Positions 7,593 to 20,085 of a stretch of 64,000 bases of DNA are shown here, piece after piece. A program made the position numbers and the translations under genes. Source of the DNA: Polyangium sp. y55x31. Lineage in GTDB: Bacteria; Myxococcota_A; Polyangia; Polyangiales; Polyangiaceae. The DNA is taken from assembly GCF_029946505.1 (NCBI RefSeq), contig NZ_JARZHG010000009.1, positions 234,927 to 298,926 on the forward strand, in the 5' to 3' direction. The notes below the pieces were generated by a model. That model saw only the letters and a program-made list of their open reading frames with translations. It had not been told where the DNA came from and made no database searches. Positions within the stretch are counted from its first letter, which is position 1; each line of letters opens with the position of its first letter.

Positions 7593-9737
7593 TCACGCGT
7601 CCGTGAGCGGGATCCCGCAAAGATTCGCGATCAACGAGACGAGCCGCCCGAGGTCCACCGGCTTCGGCACGTGCCGCTGGAACCCCGCGGCGAACGCGCG
7701 CTGGCTGTCCTCGGTGCGCGCATACGCCGTGAGCGCGATGGCCGGGGTTCGCCCGCCATACTCCGGGGGGAGCGTGCGGATGCTGCGGATCAGCGCATAT
7801 CCATCCATCCCCGGCAATCCGATGTCGCTCACGAGCACGTCGGGCCGGGACCGCGAAAGATCGTCGAGGGCCTCGTCGCTCGACGCGGCGAGCGATACGG
7901 TCGCGCCCCTCTCTTCGAGCACGCGCCGCAAAAGCGCGCGCGCGTCCTCCTCGTCGTCCACCACGAGCACCTTGAGCCCCGCCAAACGCACGTGCTGCTC
8001 GTCCGCGACCGCAGTCTCGTCCTCGGACGCGCACATGGCCGGCGTGCTCCGGATGGGCAACTCCACGGTGAACGTCGCGCCTCTGCCGATTCCGTCGCTC
8101 GACGCGGTGATCGTCCCGCCGTGCGCCTGGACCATTTGCTTGACGAGCGCGAGCCCGAGCCCGAGCCCGCCGTGCCGCCGCGCCGTGGACCCGTCCGCCT
8201 GCCGGAAGGCCTCGAAGATGTACGGCATGAACGAGGCATCGATGCCCTGCCCGGTATCCATCACCCGGAGCAGGAGGTTCGAGCCCGAGAGACACGCGCT
8301 GAGCTCGACCAGGCCGTCCTTCGGTGTGAATTTGATGGCATTCGAGAGCAGATTCCAGACGACCTGCTGGAGCCGCTCGGGATCGCCGAGCGTGAAGCCG
8401 AGCGGCCCGAGATCGACCGTGAGCTTCACGCCGCGCGCCTCCGCGACGGGCCGGAGGGATTCGACGGCGGCCTGCGTGACCTCCACGAGGTTCGTCGGCA
8501 CGAGGTCGAGGCGGAACTTGCCGCTCACGATCCGCGAGATGTCGAGCACGTCGTCGATGATGCGCGCCTGCGCCCGCGCATTGCGCTCGATGACCGAGAG
8601 GGCCCGCTCGATCTGCGGCGGCGCCTTCTGCCGCGCGAGGACGGCCCAGCCGAGGATCGCATTGAGCGGTGTACGAAGCTCGTGCGAGACGGTGGCGAGG
8701 AACTGGTCTTTCGCCTGGCTCGCGAGCTCCGCCTCGGCGCGCGCGGCGCGCTCGCGTTCGAGCAGCGCGGCGCGCTCGGCCTCGTGCTCCGCGCGCTGGA
8801 GGTGCCGGGCCACGGCCCACGCCGCGCGCTCGGCCATCGCCGCGAAGAGCCGCTTTTCCGCTTCCGAAAAACCGGTCGCGCGGCTCGATCCGATGAGCGC
8901 GACCCCGACGACCTCCCCGAAATGGAGCAGCGGCACGCCATAAAGCGCGCGCGTGCCCCTCGCCTTCAGGCACGCGCAATCCCCAAAGGCCGCGGTGCCC
9001 TCCATTTCGATCGGCTGCTTGCCCGCGGCGATGGCCCCGCACAGGCCCTCGCCGATCTTCACGGAAAACCCCTCGTCGACCGCGTGAGGGCCCACCACGG
9101 CGCGCACGCGGAGCTCCTCGCCCTCGCGCAGAAGGACCATCGCCGAGTCCGCGGCGTCGGCGGCGCCGAGGAAGATGTCGAGCAGCTCGCGCAGGAGCAC
9201 GCCGAGGTCGTCCGTGTCGAGCGCCGCCGTCGCGATACGCTCGAAGGCGACGAGCCTGCGTACGGCCTCGTCGCGCTCGCGCGTCCGCAATTCGACCTGC
9301 GCTTTGCGGATCTCTTCCCTTTGCTGGAAGAGATCCACGAACGCCTTCACGCGGGCGCGGAGCACCTCGACGTTGAACGGCTTCGTGATGTAATCGGCGG
9401 CTCCGATCGCATATCCGCGCCGCGCGTAGGCCTCGTCGCGATGAATGGCCGTCAAGAACAGGATGGGCACCTCGCGGCCGTGCTCGGTCGCGCGCATGCG
9501 GCGCGCGACCTCGAAGCCGTCCATGCCCGGCATCTGGACGTCGAGCAGCACGACGGCGAACGGCTCGCGACGCACGCATTCGAGCGCCTCGACTCCCGAT
9601 CGCGCCTCCACGAGCCGCGCGCCGAGCGGCTTCAGCACCGCGGAGAGGGCGAGGAGGTTGGCCGGTGTATCGTCGACGAGCAAGACACTCGCCAGCGGCG
9701 TGCGTTGTTCCGCGTTCATGACTTCCTGTGGGGCCAT
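7593..9737 (-). CDS. hybrid sensor histidine kinase/response regulator (REC-GAF-HisKA-HATPase_c-REC)
   Basis: N-terminal receiver (LLVDDTPANL…DVQMPGMDG…TKP), GAF-like region, H-box [12 protein letters not shown]-boxes (DTGQGI, GGLGLGLAL), C-terminal receiver (VLVVDDEEDAR…DIGLPGMDG…PKP). ATG at 9737 lies 5 nt downstream of the upstream gene's stop. A TTG at 9746 and ATG at 9719 are alternatives. Confidence 0.85.
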   Translation of the reverse strand: MAPQEVMNAEQRTPLASVLLVDDTPANLLALSAVLKPLGARLVEARSGVEALECVRREPFAVVLLDVQMPGMDGFEVARRMRATEHGREVPILFLTAIHRDEAYARRGYAIGAADYITKPFNVEVLRARVKAFVDLFQQREEIRKAQVELRTRERDEAVRRLVAFERIATAALDTDDLGVLLRELLDIFLGAADAADSAMVLLREGEELRVRAVVGPHAVDEGFSVKIGEGLCGAIAAGKQPIEMEGTAAFGDCACLKARGTRALYGVPLLHFGEVVGVALIGSSRATGFSEAEKRLFAAMAERAAWAVARHLQRAEHEAERAALLERERAARAEAELASQAKDQFLATVSHELRTPLNAILGWAVLARQKAPPQIERALSVIERNARAQARIIDDVLDISRIVSGKFRLDLVPTNLVEVTQAAVESLRPVAEARGVKLTVDLGPLGFTLGDPERLQQVVWNLLSNAIKFTPKDGLVELSACLSGSNLLLRVMDTGQGIDASFMPYIFEAFRQADGSTARRHGGLGLGLALVKQMVQAHGGTITASSDGIGRGATFTVELPIRSTPAMCASEDETAVADEQHVRLAGLKVLVVDDEEDARALLRRVLEERGATVSLAASSDEALDDLSRSRPDVLVSDIGLPGMDGYALIRSIRTLPPEYGGRTPAIALTAYARTEDSQRAFAAGFQRHVPKPVDLGRLVSLIANLCGIPLTDA

Positions 9738-9742
9738 GCGTC

Positions 9743-15274
<5,532 letters not shown>

Positions 15275-15458
15275 TCCTCGTTCCCCAGGGACGTCCTCGG
15301 TCCGCTGCACGACCACCCCCCGGATGAGCGGTCCTCACCCAGTATAGTCGAGGCCCCTGACTTAGCTTTGTTTGGGACGGCACGCTTGCATCATTCCGCA
15401 TGAGGCCGGCACGTCTCTCCCAAATCGGGAATGCACGGCTCCGCCCGCCTCGAAATCG

Positions 15459-15920
15459 ATGCCGTCGCTCGGTTGCGGGGTGCTCGTGCAGGTGGTACGC
15501 CCGGCGTTTGGAGAGACATTGGGCGAGGAGCGCCGATTACCCGACGAGGTCGCGCGGTTCATCGCCGACCACATCACTTCGGTGGAGCAACTGGAGATCC
15601 TGCTTCTCCTGCGCGGCGCCCCGGACGAAGAGTGGAGCCCCCGCGCGGTTTGCGAAGCGTTGCGCACGAGCGAGCAATCGGTGAGCCGCCGCCTGGCCGA
15701 TCTGGAGGCGAGCGGCCTCCTCTCCTCGCGCCTCGCCTCCAAGCAACGCTTGTACCGGTACGCCCCAGCTTCGCCGTCACTCGATGACGACGTCGCTCGT
15801 TTGTCGTCGGCGTACACGGAGCTCCGTTACAAGGTGCTCGAGAGCATTTTTTCGAACCCGATCTCAAACCTCCAGGTATACGCCGAGGGGTTTCGGTTCA
15901 GAAAGGATCGGGATGGCTGA
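15459..15920 (+). CDS. putative winged-helix transcriptional regulator
   Basis: ATG at 15459 (MPSLGCGV…). wHTH-like segment WSPRAVCEALRTSEQSVSRRLADLEASGLL. Divergent from the poly-HAMP kinase gene. The first 29 codons of ORF 15372..15920 look non-coding. Confidence 0.55.
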   Translation: MPSLGCGVLVQVVRPAFGETLGEERRLPDEVARFIADHITSVEQLEILLLLRGAPDEEWSPRAVCEALRTSEQSVSRRLADLEASGLLSSRLASKQRLYRYAPASPSLDDDVARLSSAYTELRYKVLESIFSNPISNLQVYAEGFRFRKDRDG

Positions 15921-16170
15921 GACCGTTTATTCGCTCTGCCTGCTGACCAGCCTGGTCTGCGCGGCGCTTCTCCTCAAGAATTACCGGCACACGCGCCTGC
16001 GCCTCATCCTGTGGACGGGCCTCTGTTTTTCCGCGATGGCCCTGAACAACCTGCTATTGCTCGTGGACCTCTTGATCGGGCCGCTCGCCGATCTCTCGAT
16101 TCCGCGCGTCACGACCGCGGTCATCGCGGTGGGGCTCCTCCTCTACGGAATGATCACGGAGGTCACGTGA
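15913..16170 (+). CDS. small 3-TM membrane protein (paralog A)
   Basis: ATG at 15913 overlaps the upstream TGA (ATGGCTGA). 85 aa with three hydrophobic helices separated by KNYRHTRLRL and DLLIGPLADLSIPR loops. Confidence 0.55.
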   Translation: MAETVYSLCLLTSLVCAALLLKNYRHTRLRLILWTGLCFSAMALNNLLLLVDLLIGPLADLSIPRVTTAVIAVGLLLYGMITEVT

Positions 16171-16448
16171 TCCAGCTTTTCTCGGGCATCTTCGTGGGAA
16201 TGGCCCTGGCCGTCAGCCTGTTTTTCGTGCGGTTCTGGCGGAAGAGCCGCGAGCGCCTGTTCGCGCTGCTCGCGCTGGTGTTCGGGCTCCTCGCCGTCGA
16301 GCGCAGCGTCCTTGCGTTCGTCCGCGGCGACTACGAGAGCCGGCACTGGATCTTCCTCGTCCGGCTGCTCGCGTTCGCGCTCCTCATCCTGGGCATCGTC
16401 GACAAGAACCGGCGTCAGCCGCACCGGGCCGCCTCGCGCCCGCGATGA
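16167..16448 (+). CDS. small 3-TM membrane protein (paralog B)
   Basis: GTG at 16167 overlaps the upstream TGA (GTGA). Same architecture as paralog A, with a matching basic loop RFWRKSRERL vs KNYRHTRLRL. Alternative ATG at 16200. Confidence 0.5.
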   Translation: MIQLFSGIFVGMALAVSLFFVRFWRKSRERLFALLALVFGLLAVERSVLAFVRGDYESRHWIFLVRLLAFALLILGIVDKNRRQPHRAASRPR

Positions 16449-16449
16449 T

Positions 16450-17181
16450 TCACTTCGTGCAGGAAAAAACCTCGGCGTGGGGGCGGCGGAGGTATTCGGT
16501 CCAGTAATCGGCCCCGAGCGCCGCGATGCCCTCCGACGAGATCTGCGGCGTGTGCCAGACGATGTCGCGGAAGCCGGCCTCGCGCAGGGCGGATTCGTAG
16601 GTGGGGCGTTTCCAGTGATACGCGGTGAGCGTGAACGGGAGCTCCGGCACCAGGCTCTTCACCGTGGAGACGTCGCCGTCTTCGCCGCGCGACACCGCTT
16701 CGAACCCGTATTTCCGATAATACGAGTCGTCCCCGAACGCGATGTCCGGGCTCATGCAGATGGATACGAGGCGGCCGCCCGGCGCGAGCGACGCGTGGAG
16801 GCTCGTGCACATGTCGCGCAAGACCTCCCGCGACGGCGCGTAATGCAGGAGGTAGGTCGCGGCGACGACGTCGAAGGTGCCGAGGCCGCGGGCGCTCTCC
16901 GCGCCGAGCACGTGGTATTCGATGCCGAGCGGCTGCGAAGCTTCGAGGTGGCGCGCATAATCGATCATGCCCTCGGAGTTGTCGATGCCCACGACGCGGG
17001 AAGCGCCGCGCTGCTTGAATCGACGGCTGTAGAGCCCCGTGCCACAGGCGACGTCGAGCACCGAGCGGCCCGTGATGTCGCCGAGCGCCTGGAAAAACGT
17101 GTACTCCTCGTAATACTTCCGGAGCGGAATTTCGGCCGTCATGTTCGTGACCGCCGCGAGCGTGTCGTATTGGCTACCCAT
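16450..17181 (-). CDS. class I SAM-dependent methyltransferase
   Basis: Motif I VLDVACGTGLYS, an acidic post-I residue (GIDNSEGM), and motif II/III-like segments (FDVVAATYLLHY, GGRLV). Confidence 0.85.
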   Translation of the reverse strand: MGSQYDTLAAVTNMTAEIPLRKYYEEYTFFQALGDITGRSVLDVACGTGLYSRRFKQRGASRVVGIDNSEGMIDYARHLEASQPLGIEYHVLGAESARGLGTFDVVAATYLLHYAPSREVLRDMCTSLHASLAPGGRLVSICMSPDIAFGDDSYYRKYGFEAVSRGEDGDVSTVKSLVPELPFTLTAYHWKRPTYESALREAGFRDIVWHTPQISSEGIAALGADYWTEYLRRPHAEVFSCTK

Positions 17182-17195
17182 CTGGTTCCTCCCTT

Positions 17196-18905
17196 TCAGA
17201 GTTCGATCAGCGCCTGCGCCGCGACCAGGGGAATCGACGGCCGCGCGCTCGCCATGCTGGAGAAGCGCACTGCCGCCGGGTGCGGCACCCGCGCGAGCGT
17301 GTCGATCTCGGTCGGACGCACCGATTGATACAGAAGCTCCACCGTCACGCGCCGGATCGCGGCGCCGCCCTCGATCTTGTACGTGACGCGGTCGAAGCCG
17401 GCCTGGAACGTGCCATCACCCGCGATACCCACGGGCCTGATCCAGTCGATCCACGAATCCGCGCTCGACCAGCCCAGGGGCAGGAGGCGATTGTCTTTGA
17501 CAAACCCGACGGAGGCGAGCGGCCTGTGCGTGGGGGCGCCGCTCGCGTCCTTGGCGACGGCCTCGTAGACCTGCACCTCGGATTCCTTGGTGACGACGTC
17601 GCGGTGCGGCAGGACCGAATCCGCTCGATCGAGCCGCGCGCCTGCGCGATCCACGAGCGCGCCCGTCGCGTCGAACGCGCCCGATTCGAAGAGCACCTCG
17701 CCGCCCGCGCCCTCGGCGCGCAAATGAATCCACGCGCGCCGGCTCGGATACCCCGTGGGGAACTTGTGCCCCGCGTGGTTCTCGACCTGCACCTCGACGG
17801 CGAGCGCGCCGCCCTCCATCGACGCCGAGAGAATGCTGACGACCGCTCCCTCGGCGACATGCGCCTCGGCGCGCGTGGCCGATTGTTCGAGCTCCTCGGG
17901 CGCCACGCCCGCGCCCGTCCATTCGGCGTTGTCCGCGAGGATGCGCAGCATGTAGGCATTGCCTCCGCTGAACCGATGCTGGCCGTAGGGCGTGCGCGCG
18001 CCGAGCCCGGCGGGGAACTTGGCAATGGGCGAGGAGATGTCGACCTTCGCCCCGTCCTGCGTGGGCAAATGGCAGGTCGCGCAAGGAACGCCGGCCGCGA
18101 ACGTGGAGTTTTTCCACTCGAGGTAGGGCGCCTGTTCGAGGAAATCACCCACGCGCTGATCGCCCTTCATGATGGGCACGAGCACCGTGTGGCACGTCGC
18201 GCAGACCTCGCTCTTCGTGATGTGCGAGGAGGCGGTGGGCGTGTAATTCACGATGAGCTGCATCGGGTCGACCTTCGGTACGAGGTGCGGGCCATAGATT
18301 TCCCGCTCGTAGCCGATGACGAACCCGCCGCCGAAGCTCGTCGTTTTTCCGAGCCCGTCGTCGGCGATCTGGTGGCAAAGCGTGCAGGTCACGCCGTCGC
18401 GGGCGAGGAGCGCCTCTTTGCCGTCGCCCGCGACGAGGGCGTCGAACGTCAAATGCCCGCCCGCCTGCGCTTGCTCCTCGGACCCGGCCGGCGCATGACA
18501 ACGCGTGCACGTCTCCTCGACGAACGCCTCGCGGCCCGAATGTTCGAGGAGCTCTTCGCCGAAGACCGCGAGATAATAGGGATCACGCGCGGCCAAGGCC
18601 ATCATCGAGCTCCGCCACAGATACACCGGAGAGATGTCGTTTCCGGCGGAATCGTGCATGACGGTCGCCTCCGGGCCGGCGAAGTGGCATTGCCCGCACT
18701 GGCCGCTCGTCGCGAAACGATCGGTGTTCGCGGGGGCTGGAGGCGGGAGCGGATCGAGGGGCGGGGGGAGCACGACCTCGGGCTCAGGCTCGGGCCCGGG
18801 CTCGGTTCCGCTGCCGGGCGGCTTTTCCCCGCAGGAAAACCCGAGGGGCAAAAAGAGGAGCACGATGCCTGCGCACCGCGCGTATCGGGTGTTCGTCGCG
18901 TTCAT
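17196..18905 (-). CDS. multiheme c-type cytochrome (5 × CxxCH), secreted/lipid-anchored
   Basis: ATG at 18905 gives a signal peptide MNATNTRYARCAGIVLLFLPLGFSCG. Haem motifs are CGQCH, CTRCH, CTLCH, CATCH and CATCH. The upstream 97 codons of the long ORF are Arg/Pro-rich junk. Confidence 0.85.
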   Translation of the reverse strand: MNATNTRYARCAGIVLLFLPLGFSCGEKPPGSGTEPGPEPEPEVVLPPPLDPLPPPAPANTDRFATSGQCGQCHFAGPEATVMHDSAGNDISPVYLWRSSMMALAARDPYYLAVFGEELLEHSGREAFVEETCTRCHAPAGSEEQAQAGGHLTFDALVAGDGKEALLARDGVTCTLCHQIADDGLGKTTSFGGGFVIGYEREIYGPHLVPKVDPMQLIVNYTPTASSHITKSEVCATCHTVLVPIMKGDQRVGDFLEQAPYLEWKNSTFAAGVPCATCHLPTQDGAKVDISSPIAKFPAGLGARTPYGQHRFSGGNAYMLRILADNAEWTGAGVAPEELEQSATRAEAHVAEGAVVSILSASMEGGALAVEVQVENHAGHKFPTGYPSRRAWIHLRAEGAGGEVLFESGAFDATGALVDRAGARLDRADSVLPHRDVVTKESEVQVYEAVAKDASGAPTHRPLASVGFVKDNRLLPLGWSSADSWIDWIRPVGIAGDGTFQAGFDRVTYKIEGGAAIRRVTVELLYQSVRPTEIDTLARVPHPAAVRFSSMASARPSIPLVAAQALIEL

Positions 18906-19023: not shown

Positions 19024-20085
19024 CTAACATTCCGGGATGATGTCCACGCCGCCGAAAAACTCGTCCACGAGGATCTTCCACGCGCGGCCATTCTCCTCGG
19101 GACCACATTTGAACGCTGGTTTGACGGGTTTGTCGCCGCGGAGCACGGCGCGCGTCTCGCGGTAGTACCGGGCGGCGAGGTCGGCGCCGTATTCATTCAC
19201 GGCGTCGCCGTTGTTCGGCTGGAACGCGTAATACGTGCCGCCGCGGACCATCGTGGGCATGGGCGCGTAAGGCGCGAGGCACGAGGGCTTCGTGCTGCAT
19301 TTCTGGAGGATGGCGTCGTGGATCGAGCCGAGCTTCTTGCGCGACCACTGCTCGGGCCCCGAGAGCCGCGCGGCGTCGTTCAAATGGAACATCTCGTGAA
19401 AAAGGGTTTCTCGCACGGCCTCCGCGGAGCCGTGCAGCGAGCCCGAGACGTTGTACCCGATGCTCCAGCCGCTCGCGTAGGCCGAGGGGGTCGTGCGGCC
19501 GACGGAGCGGAAGAACTTCCAGGAAATGGCGCGATGTCGATACTGGACGCCCGCCTTCGCGCGGGCGGCGACGGCATCAAAGAACGCGTCGAAATCGGCG
19601 CTCGCCTCGGCGACCCAGCCGAGGTGTTTTTCGTAGCGGCCGACGGGCAGCTCCGGGACGATACGAATCGAGCCGCGGAAGCCGCCCTCCATCACGTAAG
19701 GCTCCTCGACGCCGACGACGCTGCCGGTCTTCTCGTAGAGCGAGAGCACGGTGGCCCGCGCGGAGGTGTGCCCTTCGTAGCGTTTTCCGAGCAGGCAACG
19801 AATCCGCGCCCGCGAGTCGGCGTCGGTGCAGGCCGCGGCGGCGGACGCCTCGCCCGGGAAAAGCAGGGTCGCGGCTTCGTCTGCCGAAATGGCCGGGGGC
19901 GCGGGAACGCTGGCCGGGGCAGGCGCGGGAGCAGAAGCGGAGGCGGTGGCGGTGGCGGGAGCAGCGGCGGATGCAGGCGCGGCCGCGGAGGCGGATGCAG
20001 GCGCCTGCTCCGATGGCACAGCGGGCGTCCCGCAAGCCGCGGCGAACAGCGGCGCGAAGAAACCGAGTTTGGCAAAGCGTATCAT
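19024..20085 (-). CDS. lipoprotein with HExxH zinc-metalloprotease motif
   Basis: Lipobox LFAAACG, an Ala/Pro-rich linker, and the HEMFH motif in TLFHEMFHLND. Confidence 0.7.
   Translation of the reverse strand: MIRFAKLGFFAPLFAAACGTPAVPSEQAPASASAAAPASAAAPATATASASAPAPAPASVPAPPAISADEAATLLFPGEASAAAACTDADSRARIRCLLGKRYEGHTSARATVLSLYEKTGSVVGVEEPYVMEGGFRGSIRIVPELPVGRYEKHLGWVAEASADFDAFFDAVAARAKAGVQYRHRAISWKFFRSVGRTTPSAYASGWSIGYNVSGSLHGSAEAVRETLFHEMFHLNDAARLSGPEQWSRKKLGSIHDAILQKCSTKPSCLAPYAPMPTMVRGGTYYAFQPNNGDAVNEYGADLAARYYRETRAVLRGDKPVKPAFKCGPEENGRAWKILVDEFFGGVDIIPEC

Follow-up and report, generated by a model that had tools for sequence, protein, structure and literature searches.

A conserved operon of a small winged-helix regulator and two DUF5985 membrane proteins, located beside Ask-type poly-HAMP kinases in some bacterial lineages

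We analyzed a 64,000-nucleotide (nt) stretch of the genome of Polyangium sp. y55x31 (NCBI RefSeq assembly GCF_029946505.1, contig NZ_JARZHG010000009.1, positions 234,927 to 298,926; hereafter the window), which encodes three adjacent plus-strand genes for a small winged-helix regulator (REG) and two paralogous membrane mini-proteins (A and B) of the family DUF5985. The unit of selection is a translationally coupled REG-A-B operon, a conclusion that is well-supported by its conservation across bacterial phyla, and the trio is so far undescribed as a module. We consider the chances evenly balanced that this trio is a membrane-to-transcription signaling cassette for envelope, osmotic, or ionic stress that is wired, in some lineages, to Ask-type kinases. 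A first-pass annotation of the window had tentatively joined the trio to a convergent methyltransferase gene and a cytochrome gene in an undescribed five-gene module. All five open reading frames (ORFs) were found where it had placed them, and deep conservation upholds the REG-A-B part of that module, whereas the methyltransferase and cytochrome part is restricted to Polyangium and does not stand. The module had been extended toward the wrong flank: neither the methyltransferase nor the cytochrome belongs in it, and a kinase pair at 7593–15316 is to be added as a lineage-specific partner.

An alignment of B-type proteins served as the anchor for a scan of one genome per species, which yielded 69 loci (individual loci are prefixed L below); these were examined with hidden Markov models of REG, A-type, and B-type proteins. 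These loci are spread over at least 10 phyla, among them the Myxococcota, Planctomycetota, Verrucomicrobiota, Acidobacteriota, Gemmatimonadota, Nitrospirota, Pseudomonadota, Actinomycetota, and Abditibacteriota. The order REG, A, B on one strand was kept in 66 of the 69 loci, the exceptions being a locus at a contig end (L045), one with a B-type remnant alone (L071), and one that lacks REG (L060). Coupling of the genes was similarly widespread: the REG stop overlapped the A start in 53/69 loci, with the identical 8-nt overlap in 39/69, and the gap between the A stop and the B start was at most 30 nt in 66/69, with a GTGA overlap in 24/69. Both overlaps that had been reported for the window are present, namely ATGGCTGA between REG and A (GAT GGC TGA / ATG GCT GAG, 15913–15920) and GTGA between A and B (ACG TGA / GTG ATC, 16167–16170). 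A search anchored on REG returned DUF5985 genes directly downstream in both of two contigs. The first contexts obtained (a metagenomic myxobacterium, Brevifollis of the Verrucomicrobiota, and P. spumosum) all featured a protein of ~130 amino acids (aa) followed by two DUF5985 genes, and in all three a poly-HAMP kinase of 1500–1850 aa stood beside the trio. Two loci depart from the common layout. A proteobacterial metagenome-assembled genome (MAG) carries two complete REG-A-B cassettes in tandem (L058:7135-9249), and an Acidobacteriota MAG (L060:3256-7853) carries A-B without REG. Downstream of this pair lie OtsA and OtsB fused into one trehalose synthase-phosphatase, a canonical MarR gene, and a solitary extra B-type gene.

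Both mini-proteins matched the Pfam family PF19447 over their full length (scores in Table 1; cut-off 27.3 bits), and database homologs carry the label PF19447 or ‘DUF5985 family protein’. B is identical (100%) to an annotated DUF5985 protein of Polyangium sp. y55x31. No paper mentioning the DUF5985 family was found in the literature that was searched. The paralogy of A and B that had been proposed from the window alone is confirmed by their shared family membership and by a profile-profile match between the A and B families (92.9% probability, E 3.8e-7, 84 columns). The loop motif [KR]xY/WRxxRxRL was found in the two proteins and reads KNYRHTRLRL in A and RFWRKSRERL in B. A-type and B-type proteins form separate orthologous groups from Myxococcota to Verrucomicrobiota, and on these sequence comparisons the paralogy is real and ancient. 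In alignments, the A-type proteins share invariant Y6, C9, C16, F39, D52, R65, and G79 and near-invariant C38 and N46. The conserved features of the B-type proteins are LFFxRFW, (D/E)RLF, a loop Glu, RLLAF, an Arg at the start of the third transmembrane helix (TM3), and a C-terminal GIVDKNR.

An AlphaFold2 model of A comprises three helices (residues 2–27, 30–55, and 62–84) with a predicted local distance difference test score (pLDDT) of 78. Three uncharged stretches were detected in 67/69 A proteins and two in most B sequences. The first loop is strongly basic in both proteins, with a mean of 3.5 Lys and Arg residues and a mean of only 0.1 (A) or 1.1 (B) Asp and Glu residues, while the second loop is acidic (1.4 basic against 2.5 acidic residues in A, and 0.8 against 2.0 in B) and the C-terminus of B is basic (4.3 against 1.5). 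Since these loop charges obey the positive-inside rule, both proteins are predicted to be oriented with the N-terminus out and the C-terminus in. A fold search with the A monomer model was non-specific, a profile of the B family searched against PDB sequences gave chance-level matches (best E 0.53), and among Pfam and NCBIfam models only DUF5985 exceeded its cut-off, so that no transporter family was assigned to either protein.

The description of REG as a winged helix-turn-helix protein holds on two grounds, a Pfam match to MarR_2 that is above the cut-off, if marginally (32 bits, E 1.4e-7, cut-off 27), and an AlphaFold2 model that matches MarR and ArsR/SmtB structures. The model (mean pLDDT 90) has four helices and a beta hairpin, extended at the C-terminus by two additional helices, and its Foldseek matches were MepR, MftR, HlyU, NolR, SmtB, and SqrR (template-modeling score ~0.5, E ~1e-4), with MepR and MftR on top. 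Against the NCBIfam ArsR/SmtB model NF033788, REG scored 27.9 bits and failed the cut-off of 55. The REG family comprises 3130 clusters at 50% identity, nearly all of 125–135 aa, and its distant members often have no recorded Pfam match. An alignment of 126 sequences revealed a family-specific SVEQLE motif but no Cys or His site and no metal or thiol site that is conserved. The last ~20 residues form a tail with a near-invariant FADAFRxRKD (YAEGFRFRKD in the window) that is modeled at a pLDDT of only 54–64. Such low model confidence in a conserved tail would be expected if the tail becomes ordered only upon contact with a partner.

NCBI annotates REG from an ATG at 15459 (153 aa; exact match WP_281314713.1). 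Sequence comparison suggests that the TTG at 15519 (133 aa) is more probably the start, because ~130 aa is the family norm, because a Shine-Dalgarno-like block (GGGAGAG) before the TTG is kept among Polyangium species, and because the stretch upstream of it contains indels that are not multiples of three in the Polyangium alignment. Six loci (L015, L021, L070, L034, L056, and L061) carry perfect palindromes of 18–20 bp located 45–95 nt before REG. GACATG-N8-CATGTC was found in two Acidobacteria, with a variant, GACATC-N8-GATGTC, in a betaproteobacterium, and TCGTT-N8-AACGA was found in three Polyangiaceae; the palindromes noted for L021 and L056 are GACATG-N8-CATGTC and TCGTTTG-N4-CAAACGA. These lineage-specific palindromes are candidate REG operators. 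A promoter and terminator scan returned nothing informative, no RNA family matched the DNA upstream of REG, and scans with PADLOC, PHROGs, and Rfam gave no defense-system, phage, or riboswitch assignment.

The kinase that diverges from REG in the window contains 12 HAMP and 12 HAMP_2 stretches (~24 HAMP units) along with GAF_2, HisKA, HATPase_c, and Response_reg domains (Pfam). It has no transmembrane segment, carries a basic, hydrophilic N-terminal tail, and has its probable true start at the ATG at 15274. The gene behind it, with the domains REC-GAF-HisKA-HATPase_c-REC, overlaps its stop codon, and a second hybrid kinase usually follows the poly-HAMP kinase elsewhere too, an equivalent partner being present in L005, L011, L013, L021, L046, L071, L076, L077, L078, L080, and L081. 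A poly-HAMP kinase lies at most 9 kb from the trio with certainty in 16 of the 69 loci and probably in two more, and it is present in 10 of the 34 loci that have at least 6 kb on both flanks. Three arrangements relative to the trio were seen: the kinase gene is divergent in Polyangium, Sandaracinus, Gemmataceae, Fontivita, and a betaproteobacterium; it lies upstream and reads in the same direction in Brevifollis, Sorangium, Nitrospira, and a Polyangia MAG; and it is convergent in Acidobacteria and Myxococcaceae. Since M. xanthus encodes just two such kinases (PMC7643160), adjacency by chance should be rare. Kinases with and without an adjacent trio were not distinguished by any N-terminal domain, and all have a variable basic tail. 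The repeat region (9743–15316) also contains many long spurious ORFs on both strands (e.g., 11420–15403 on the plus strand, 1327 aa), and such ORFs yielded several ‘conserved’ antisense clusters in our analysis of neighboring genes. In Brevifollis (L005:7394-11333), kinase-REG-A-B is followed by a hybrid kinase, KaiC, two KaiB, and a PAS/GAF kinase, in the manner of a circadian-clock-like signaling cluster.

All neighboring ORFs across the trio loci were subjected to unbiased all-against-all clustering. Genes for trehalose synthesis (OtsA/OtsB) were found near the trio in 10 of the 69 loci, a ClC channel with CBS domains in eight, an NhaA antiporter in five, a CPA Na+/H+ exchanger in three, and TreZ or a glycogen debranching enzyme in three to four. 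In several loci (e.g., L041, L064, L023, and L061), the trehalose or ClC gene was directly adjacent to the trio or ran in the same direction. These trehalose, ClC, and Na+/H+ antiporter neighbors suggest that the phenotype concerns tolerance of salt or osmotic stress. Clustering identified no further recurrent low-copy family besides the kinase, OtsA/OtsB, ClC, NhaA, CPA, and TreZ/debranching enzyme families; the remaining recurrent clusters comprised abundant families (Ser/Thr kinases, ABC ATPases, MarR, and MFS) or antisense artifacts. One of the latter, cluster 20 (a 632-aa ORF in six loci), was rejected on the basis of its composition. In kinase-free loci, the immediate neighbors were heterogeneous and, among 97 flanking ORFs, no Pfam family was represented more than three times.

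We propose that A and B would assemble into a heteromeric, six-helix unit of the inner membrane with the N-termini outside and with the basic first loops and the basic C-terminus of B in the cytoplasm. This unit would sense a membrane or envelope cue, for which osmotic or ionic stress is our best guess, and would control the availability or activity of REG, probably through the conserved and predicted-disordered C-terminal tail of the regulator. REG, in turn, would control transcription of its own operon and of neighboring genes. In Polyangium and in about a quarter of the other lineages, the cassette may be wired to the Ask-type pair of soluble poly-HAMP kinases, to which it could contribute either the membrane input that they lack or an output at the level of DNA binding. 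The comparison of the mini-proteins to small membrane sensors in the first-pass annotation is compatible with the data. A bolder version holds that REG-A-B is the long-sought membrane input of soluble poly-HAMP kinases, in which a DUF5985 heteromer would relay membrane, osmotic, or ionic stress through a winged-helix adaptor to the HAMP array or, alternatively, the trio would take the output of the kinase at the DNA; we consider this version unlikely.

Several observations weigh against a signaling role for the trio. About 51 of the 69 trio loci have no poly-HAMP kinase inside 9 kb and, when sampling was anchored on the kinase, the trio was adjacent in only one of five loci (Sandaracinus alone); the link between kinase and trio is therefore facultative. 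The case for an osmotic theme is one of guilt by association, drawn from ~1/3 of the loci. The recognition helix of REG is conserved only at its core leucines among the 126 aligned sequences, no inverted repeat was found in the intergenic region of the window (15275–15518), and neither k-mer enrichment nor palindrome counts compared to shuffles revealed an operator common across lineages. Finally, many of the conserved residues that A and B place within the membrane are polar or cysteines, which would equally suit a channel or transporter. Under the main rival explanation, the two mini-proteins together make up a small heteromeric channel or transporter (of an ion, metal, or small solute), REG is its dedicated MarR/ArsR-type repressor, and kinase adjacency reflects co-regulation within a stress regulon rather than physical signaling. 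Tandem, translationally coupled genes for small paralogous membrane proteins are a hallmark of paired SMR and Fluc/CrcB systems, which the A/B pair resembles in this respect. The intramembrane C9 and C16 of A, its C38, N46, D52, and R65, and the conserved Glu and Arg side chains that B carries at or close to TM2, loop 2, and TM3 would fit a conduction or transport function, as would the two uncharged stretches of most B sequences, and ion transporters (ClC, NhaA, and CPA) recur as neighbors. However, neither protein has a sequence or profile match to a transporter family, and six helices with almost no extramembrane mass would make for a minimal transporter. Moreover, the conserved disordered tail of REG has no obvious role in a plain repressor, and a recurrent link, in three arrangements, to a soluble kinase that lacks a sensor fits signaling more easily. 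We consider the channel or transporter explanation fairly unlikely.

Two other explanations can be weighed against the same survey. The mini-proteins might be holin-like lysis effectors or anti-sigma-like sequesterers, the latter having been raised as an analogy in the first-pass annotation. Class I holins have three transmembrane helices, an N-out/C-in orientation, and a basic C-terminus, a layout that B shares, and B matched Phage_holin_2 at 24.9 bits, under the Pfam cut-off of 32. Yet the only holin match in PHROGs was at E 0.055, PADLOC returned nothing relevant, no phage genes or endolysin recur nearby, and the cassette is chromosomal and conserved across phyla. The anti-sigma analogy fails in that no sigma-factor family was found among the window genes or the recurrent neighbors of the trio and in that the fold of the regulator is of MarR/ArsR type. 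Both forms of this explanation are highly improbable. The other alternative is the original proposal that regulator, mini-proteins, methyltransferase, and cytochrome constitute one functional module. The genes are tightly packed, with the stop codons of B and the methyltransferase 1 nt apart, each of the five further Polyangium species sampled (L006-L010) has the cytochrome beside the trio, and methyltransferases follow the trio in Sorangium L039 too. Against this, homologs of the window methyltransferase were found only in Polyangium loci L007-L010 and are missing in P. spumosum (L006), cytochrome homologs were found only in L006-L010, and homologs of both are missing from all trio loci outside Polyangium, including those of Sandaracinus, Sorangium, and Brevifollis, save for a generic methyltransferase match of 33 bits in L039. 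Neighbor clustering likewise identified no cytochrome or methyltransferase family that recurs outside Polyangium. The Sorangium methyltransferases appear to be of a different, lipid-type family and have another orientation. The two genes thus co-occur with the trio in Polyangium alone, and the first-pass annotation had itself held that genes never found together elsewhere would be neighbors by coincidence. After the neighborhood survey, which that annotation had suggested and which was here run across phyla with the result that the mini-protein genes are conserved and the five-gene set is not, the five-gene module is close to refuted, and we give it very little credence.

The individual characterizations of these two Polyangium neighbors were nevertheless accurate: the first is a generic class I S-adenosylmethionine (SAM) methyltransferase by its match to Methyltransf_25, and the second is a pentaheme cytochrome with five CxxCH motifs (CGQCH, CTRCH, CTLCH, CATCH, and CATCH) after a hydrophobic N-terminal leader that ends in LGFSC. 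Paired_CXXCH_1 was the only Pfam family to clear its cut-off in the cytochrome (22.8 vs 20.6 bits), with multiheme domain families remaining below theirs. Its heme-bearing half gave sub-threshold MtrC/MtrF-like and cytochrome c7 matches, and residues ~300–569 have no heme motif and a sole NCBIfam match to ExtKL (residues 367–407, 32 bits against a cut-off of 250). A match to the sul1 RNA on the opposite strand within the cytochrome gene (18789–18841, plus strand; 26.3 bits, gathering score 36.2, E 0.07) is most likely due to chance. Homologs of the adjoining ORF at 19024–20085, which has an Ala/Pro-rich N-terminus and an HEMFH (HExxH) motif, adjoin the cytochrome in L006-L010 and occur in no other trio loci; its product is possibly secreted and metallopeptidase-like and may act together with the cytochrome. 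A role in betaine synthesis was considered for the methyltransferases and rejected, the window enzyme reaching 21 of the 350 bits that the glycine/sarcosine methyltransferase model requires. The B and methyltransferase genes are convergent units with no intergenic space for a terminator (16446–16452), and a terminator-like hairpin on the minus strand lies within the B coding region (16427–16409). In Sorangium cellulosum So ceGT47 (L039:9231-14490), the genes after kinase-REG-A-B encode two methyltransferases and an OlsE-like lipid hydroxylase. One of these methyltransferases is Mtf2-like and resembles lipid O-methyltransferases, below the cut-off, and the other has no NCBIfam family; these genes hint at a connection to membrane lipids in this genome.

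Table 1. Positions of the REG-A-B trio and of surrounding features in the 64,000-nt window.
Feature	Position	Strand	Evidence
REG, MarR/ArsR-like winged-helix protein, 133 aa	15519..15920	+	MarR_2, fold model, start evidence
DUF5985 A-type mini-protein, 85 aa, three transmembrane helices	15913..16170	+	PF19447, 90.6 bits
DUF5985 B-type mini-protein, 93 aa, three transmembrane helices	16167..16448	+	PF19447, 65.5 bits
Ask-type soluble poly-HAMP hybrid histidine kinase, 1857 aa	9743..15316	-	Pfam domains; divergent from REG
AskC-like hybrid kinase	7593..9746	-	Pfam domains; directly downstream of the poly-HAMP kinase
Intergenic region between kinase and REG, divergent	15275..15518	.	Blocks conserved among Polyangium species (alignment)
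Class I SAM methyltransferase, local neighbor	16450..17181	-	Methyltransf_25, 64.5 bits
Pentaheme c-type cytochrome, genus-level neighbor	17196..18905	-	Five CxxCH motifs; heme-free C-terminal half
353-aa ORF with HEMFH motif	19024..20085	-	No Pfam match

Independent of any link to a kinase, these results provide a first genomic-context definition for DUF5985 and for a family of small winged-helix proteins of more than 3000 clusters. If A and B do act as a membrane input of poly-HAMP kinases, then the trio would represent a signaling architecture without a described counterpart. Its components nonetheless have partial parallels among known systems. REG shares its fold with MarR and ArsR/SmtB regulators and differs from them by its SVEQLE motif, its FADAFRxRKD tail, and the two DUF5985 genes that follow it. 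EbrAB, YkkCD, and the Fluc/CrcB heterodimers are likewise encoded by tandem, overlapping genes for two small paralogs, often with an upstream regulator or riboswitch. However, the subunits of SMR and Fluc pairs have four transmembrane helices and are antiparallel, whereas the DUF5985 proteins, each of three helices, are both predicted to insert in one orientation and have no profile similarity to those pairs. By analogy, the trio may share with PspB/PspC and their partners PspA-PspF, and with anti-sigma factors, the logic of tiny inner-membrane proteins that are encoded with a regulator and are proposed to turn membrane stress into a change in transcription. It is unrelated to these systems in sequence or fold and features a MarR/ArsR-type partner rather than an AAA+ activator or sigma factor, and its interaction with that partner is hypothetical.

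The kinase has closer counterparts. Like AskA and AskB of Myxococcus xanthus, the window kinase lacks transmembrane segments and combines a basic tail with a di-HAMP array, GAF, HisKA, HATPase_c, and REC domains (PMC7643160, PMC13446029), and, as in the AskB-AskC pair, it is directly followed by a second hybrid kinase. This likeness is one of architecture; sequence identities of 58–69% were recorded with those listed relatives that are more distant. Ask kinases, which are not known to carry a sensory domain, act in the responses to glycerol and to ambruticin, a Sorangium antifungal, by way of transcription factors, MrpC and FruA, to which they bind. Because neither AskA nor AskB binds ambruticin itself, the authors inferred ‘an additional factor’ (PMC7643160). 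Poly-HAMP arrays are typically without an upstream sensory domain, according to a 2026 structural study that includes structures of AskA HAMP segments (PMC13446029). Neither of these papers mentions a neighboring winged-helix protein or small membrane proteins, and the word ‘membrane’ is absent from the former (PMC7643160); in Hyalangium (L076; Cystobacterineae), the trio does not adjoin the askB-like gene. Poly-HAMP hybrid kinases control myxobacterial development, and ambruticin and fludioxonil target the corresponding kinases of fungi. A compact, widespread cassette found beside poly-HAMP kinases in several phyla, in three arrangements, is a candidate for the missing partner. The fungal group III kinases Nik1/Os-1/TcsC have been tied to osmotic stress and to sensitivity to ambruticin and fludioxonil (PMC7643160, PMC11253588, PMC13446029). 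They differ from the window kinase in being eukaryotic and in having shorter arrays, and they share with it the combination of a soluble poly-HAMP array, a kinase, and a receiver.

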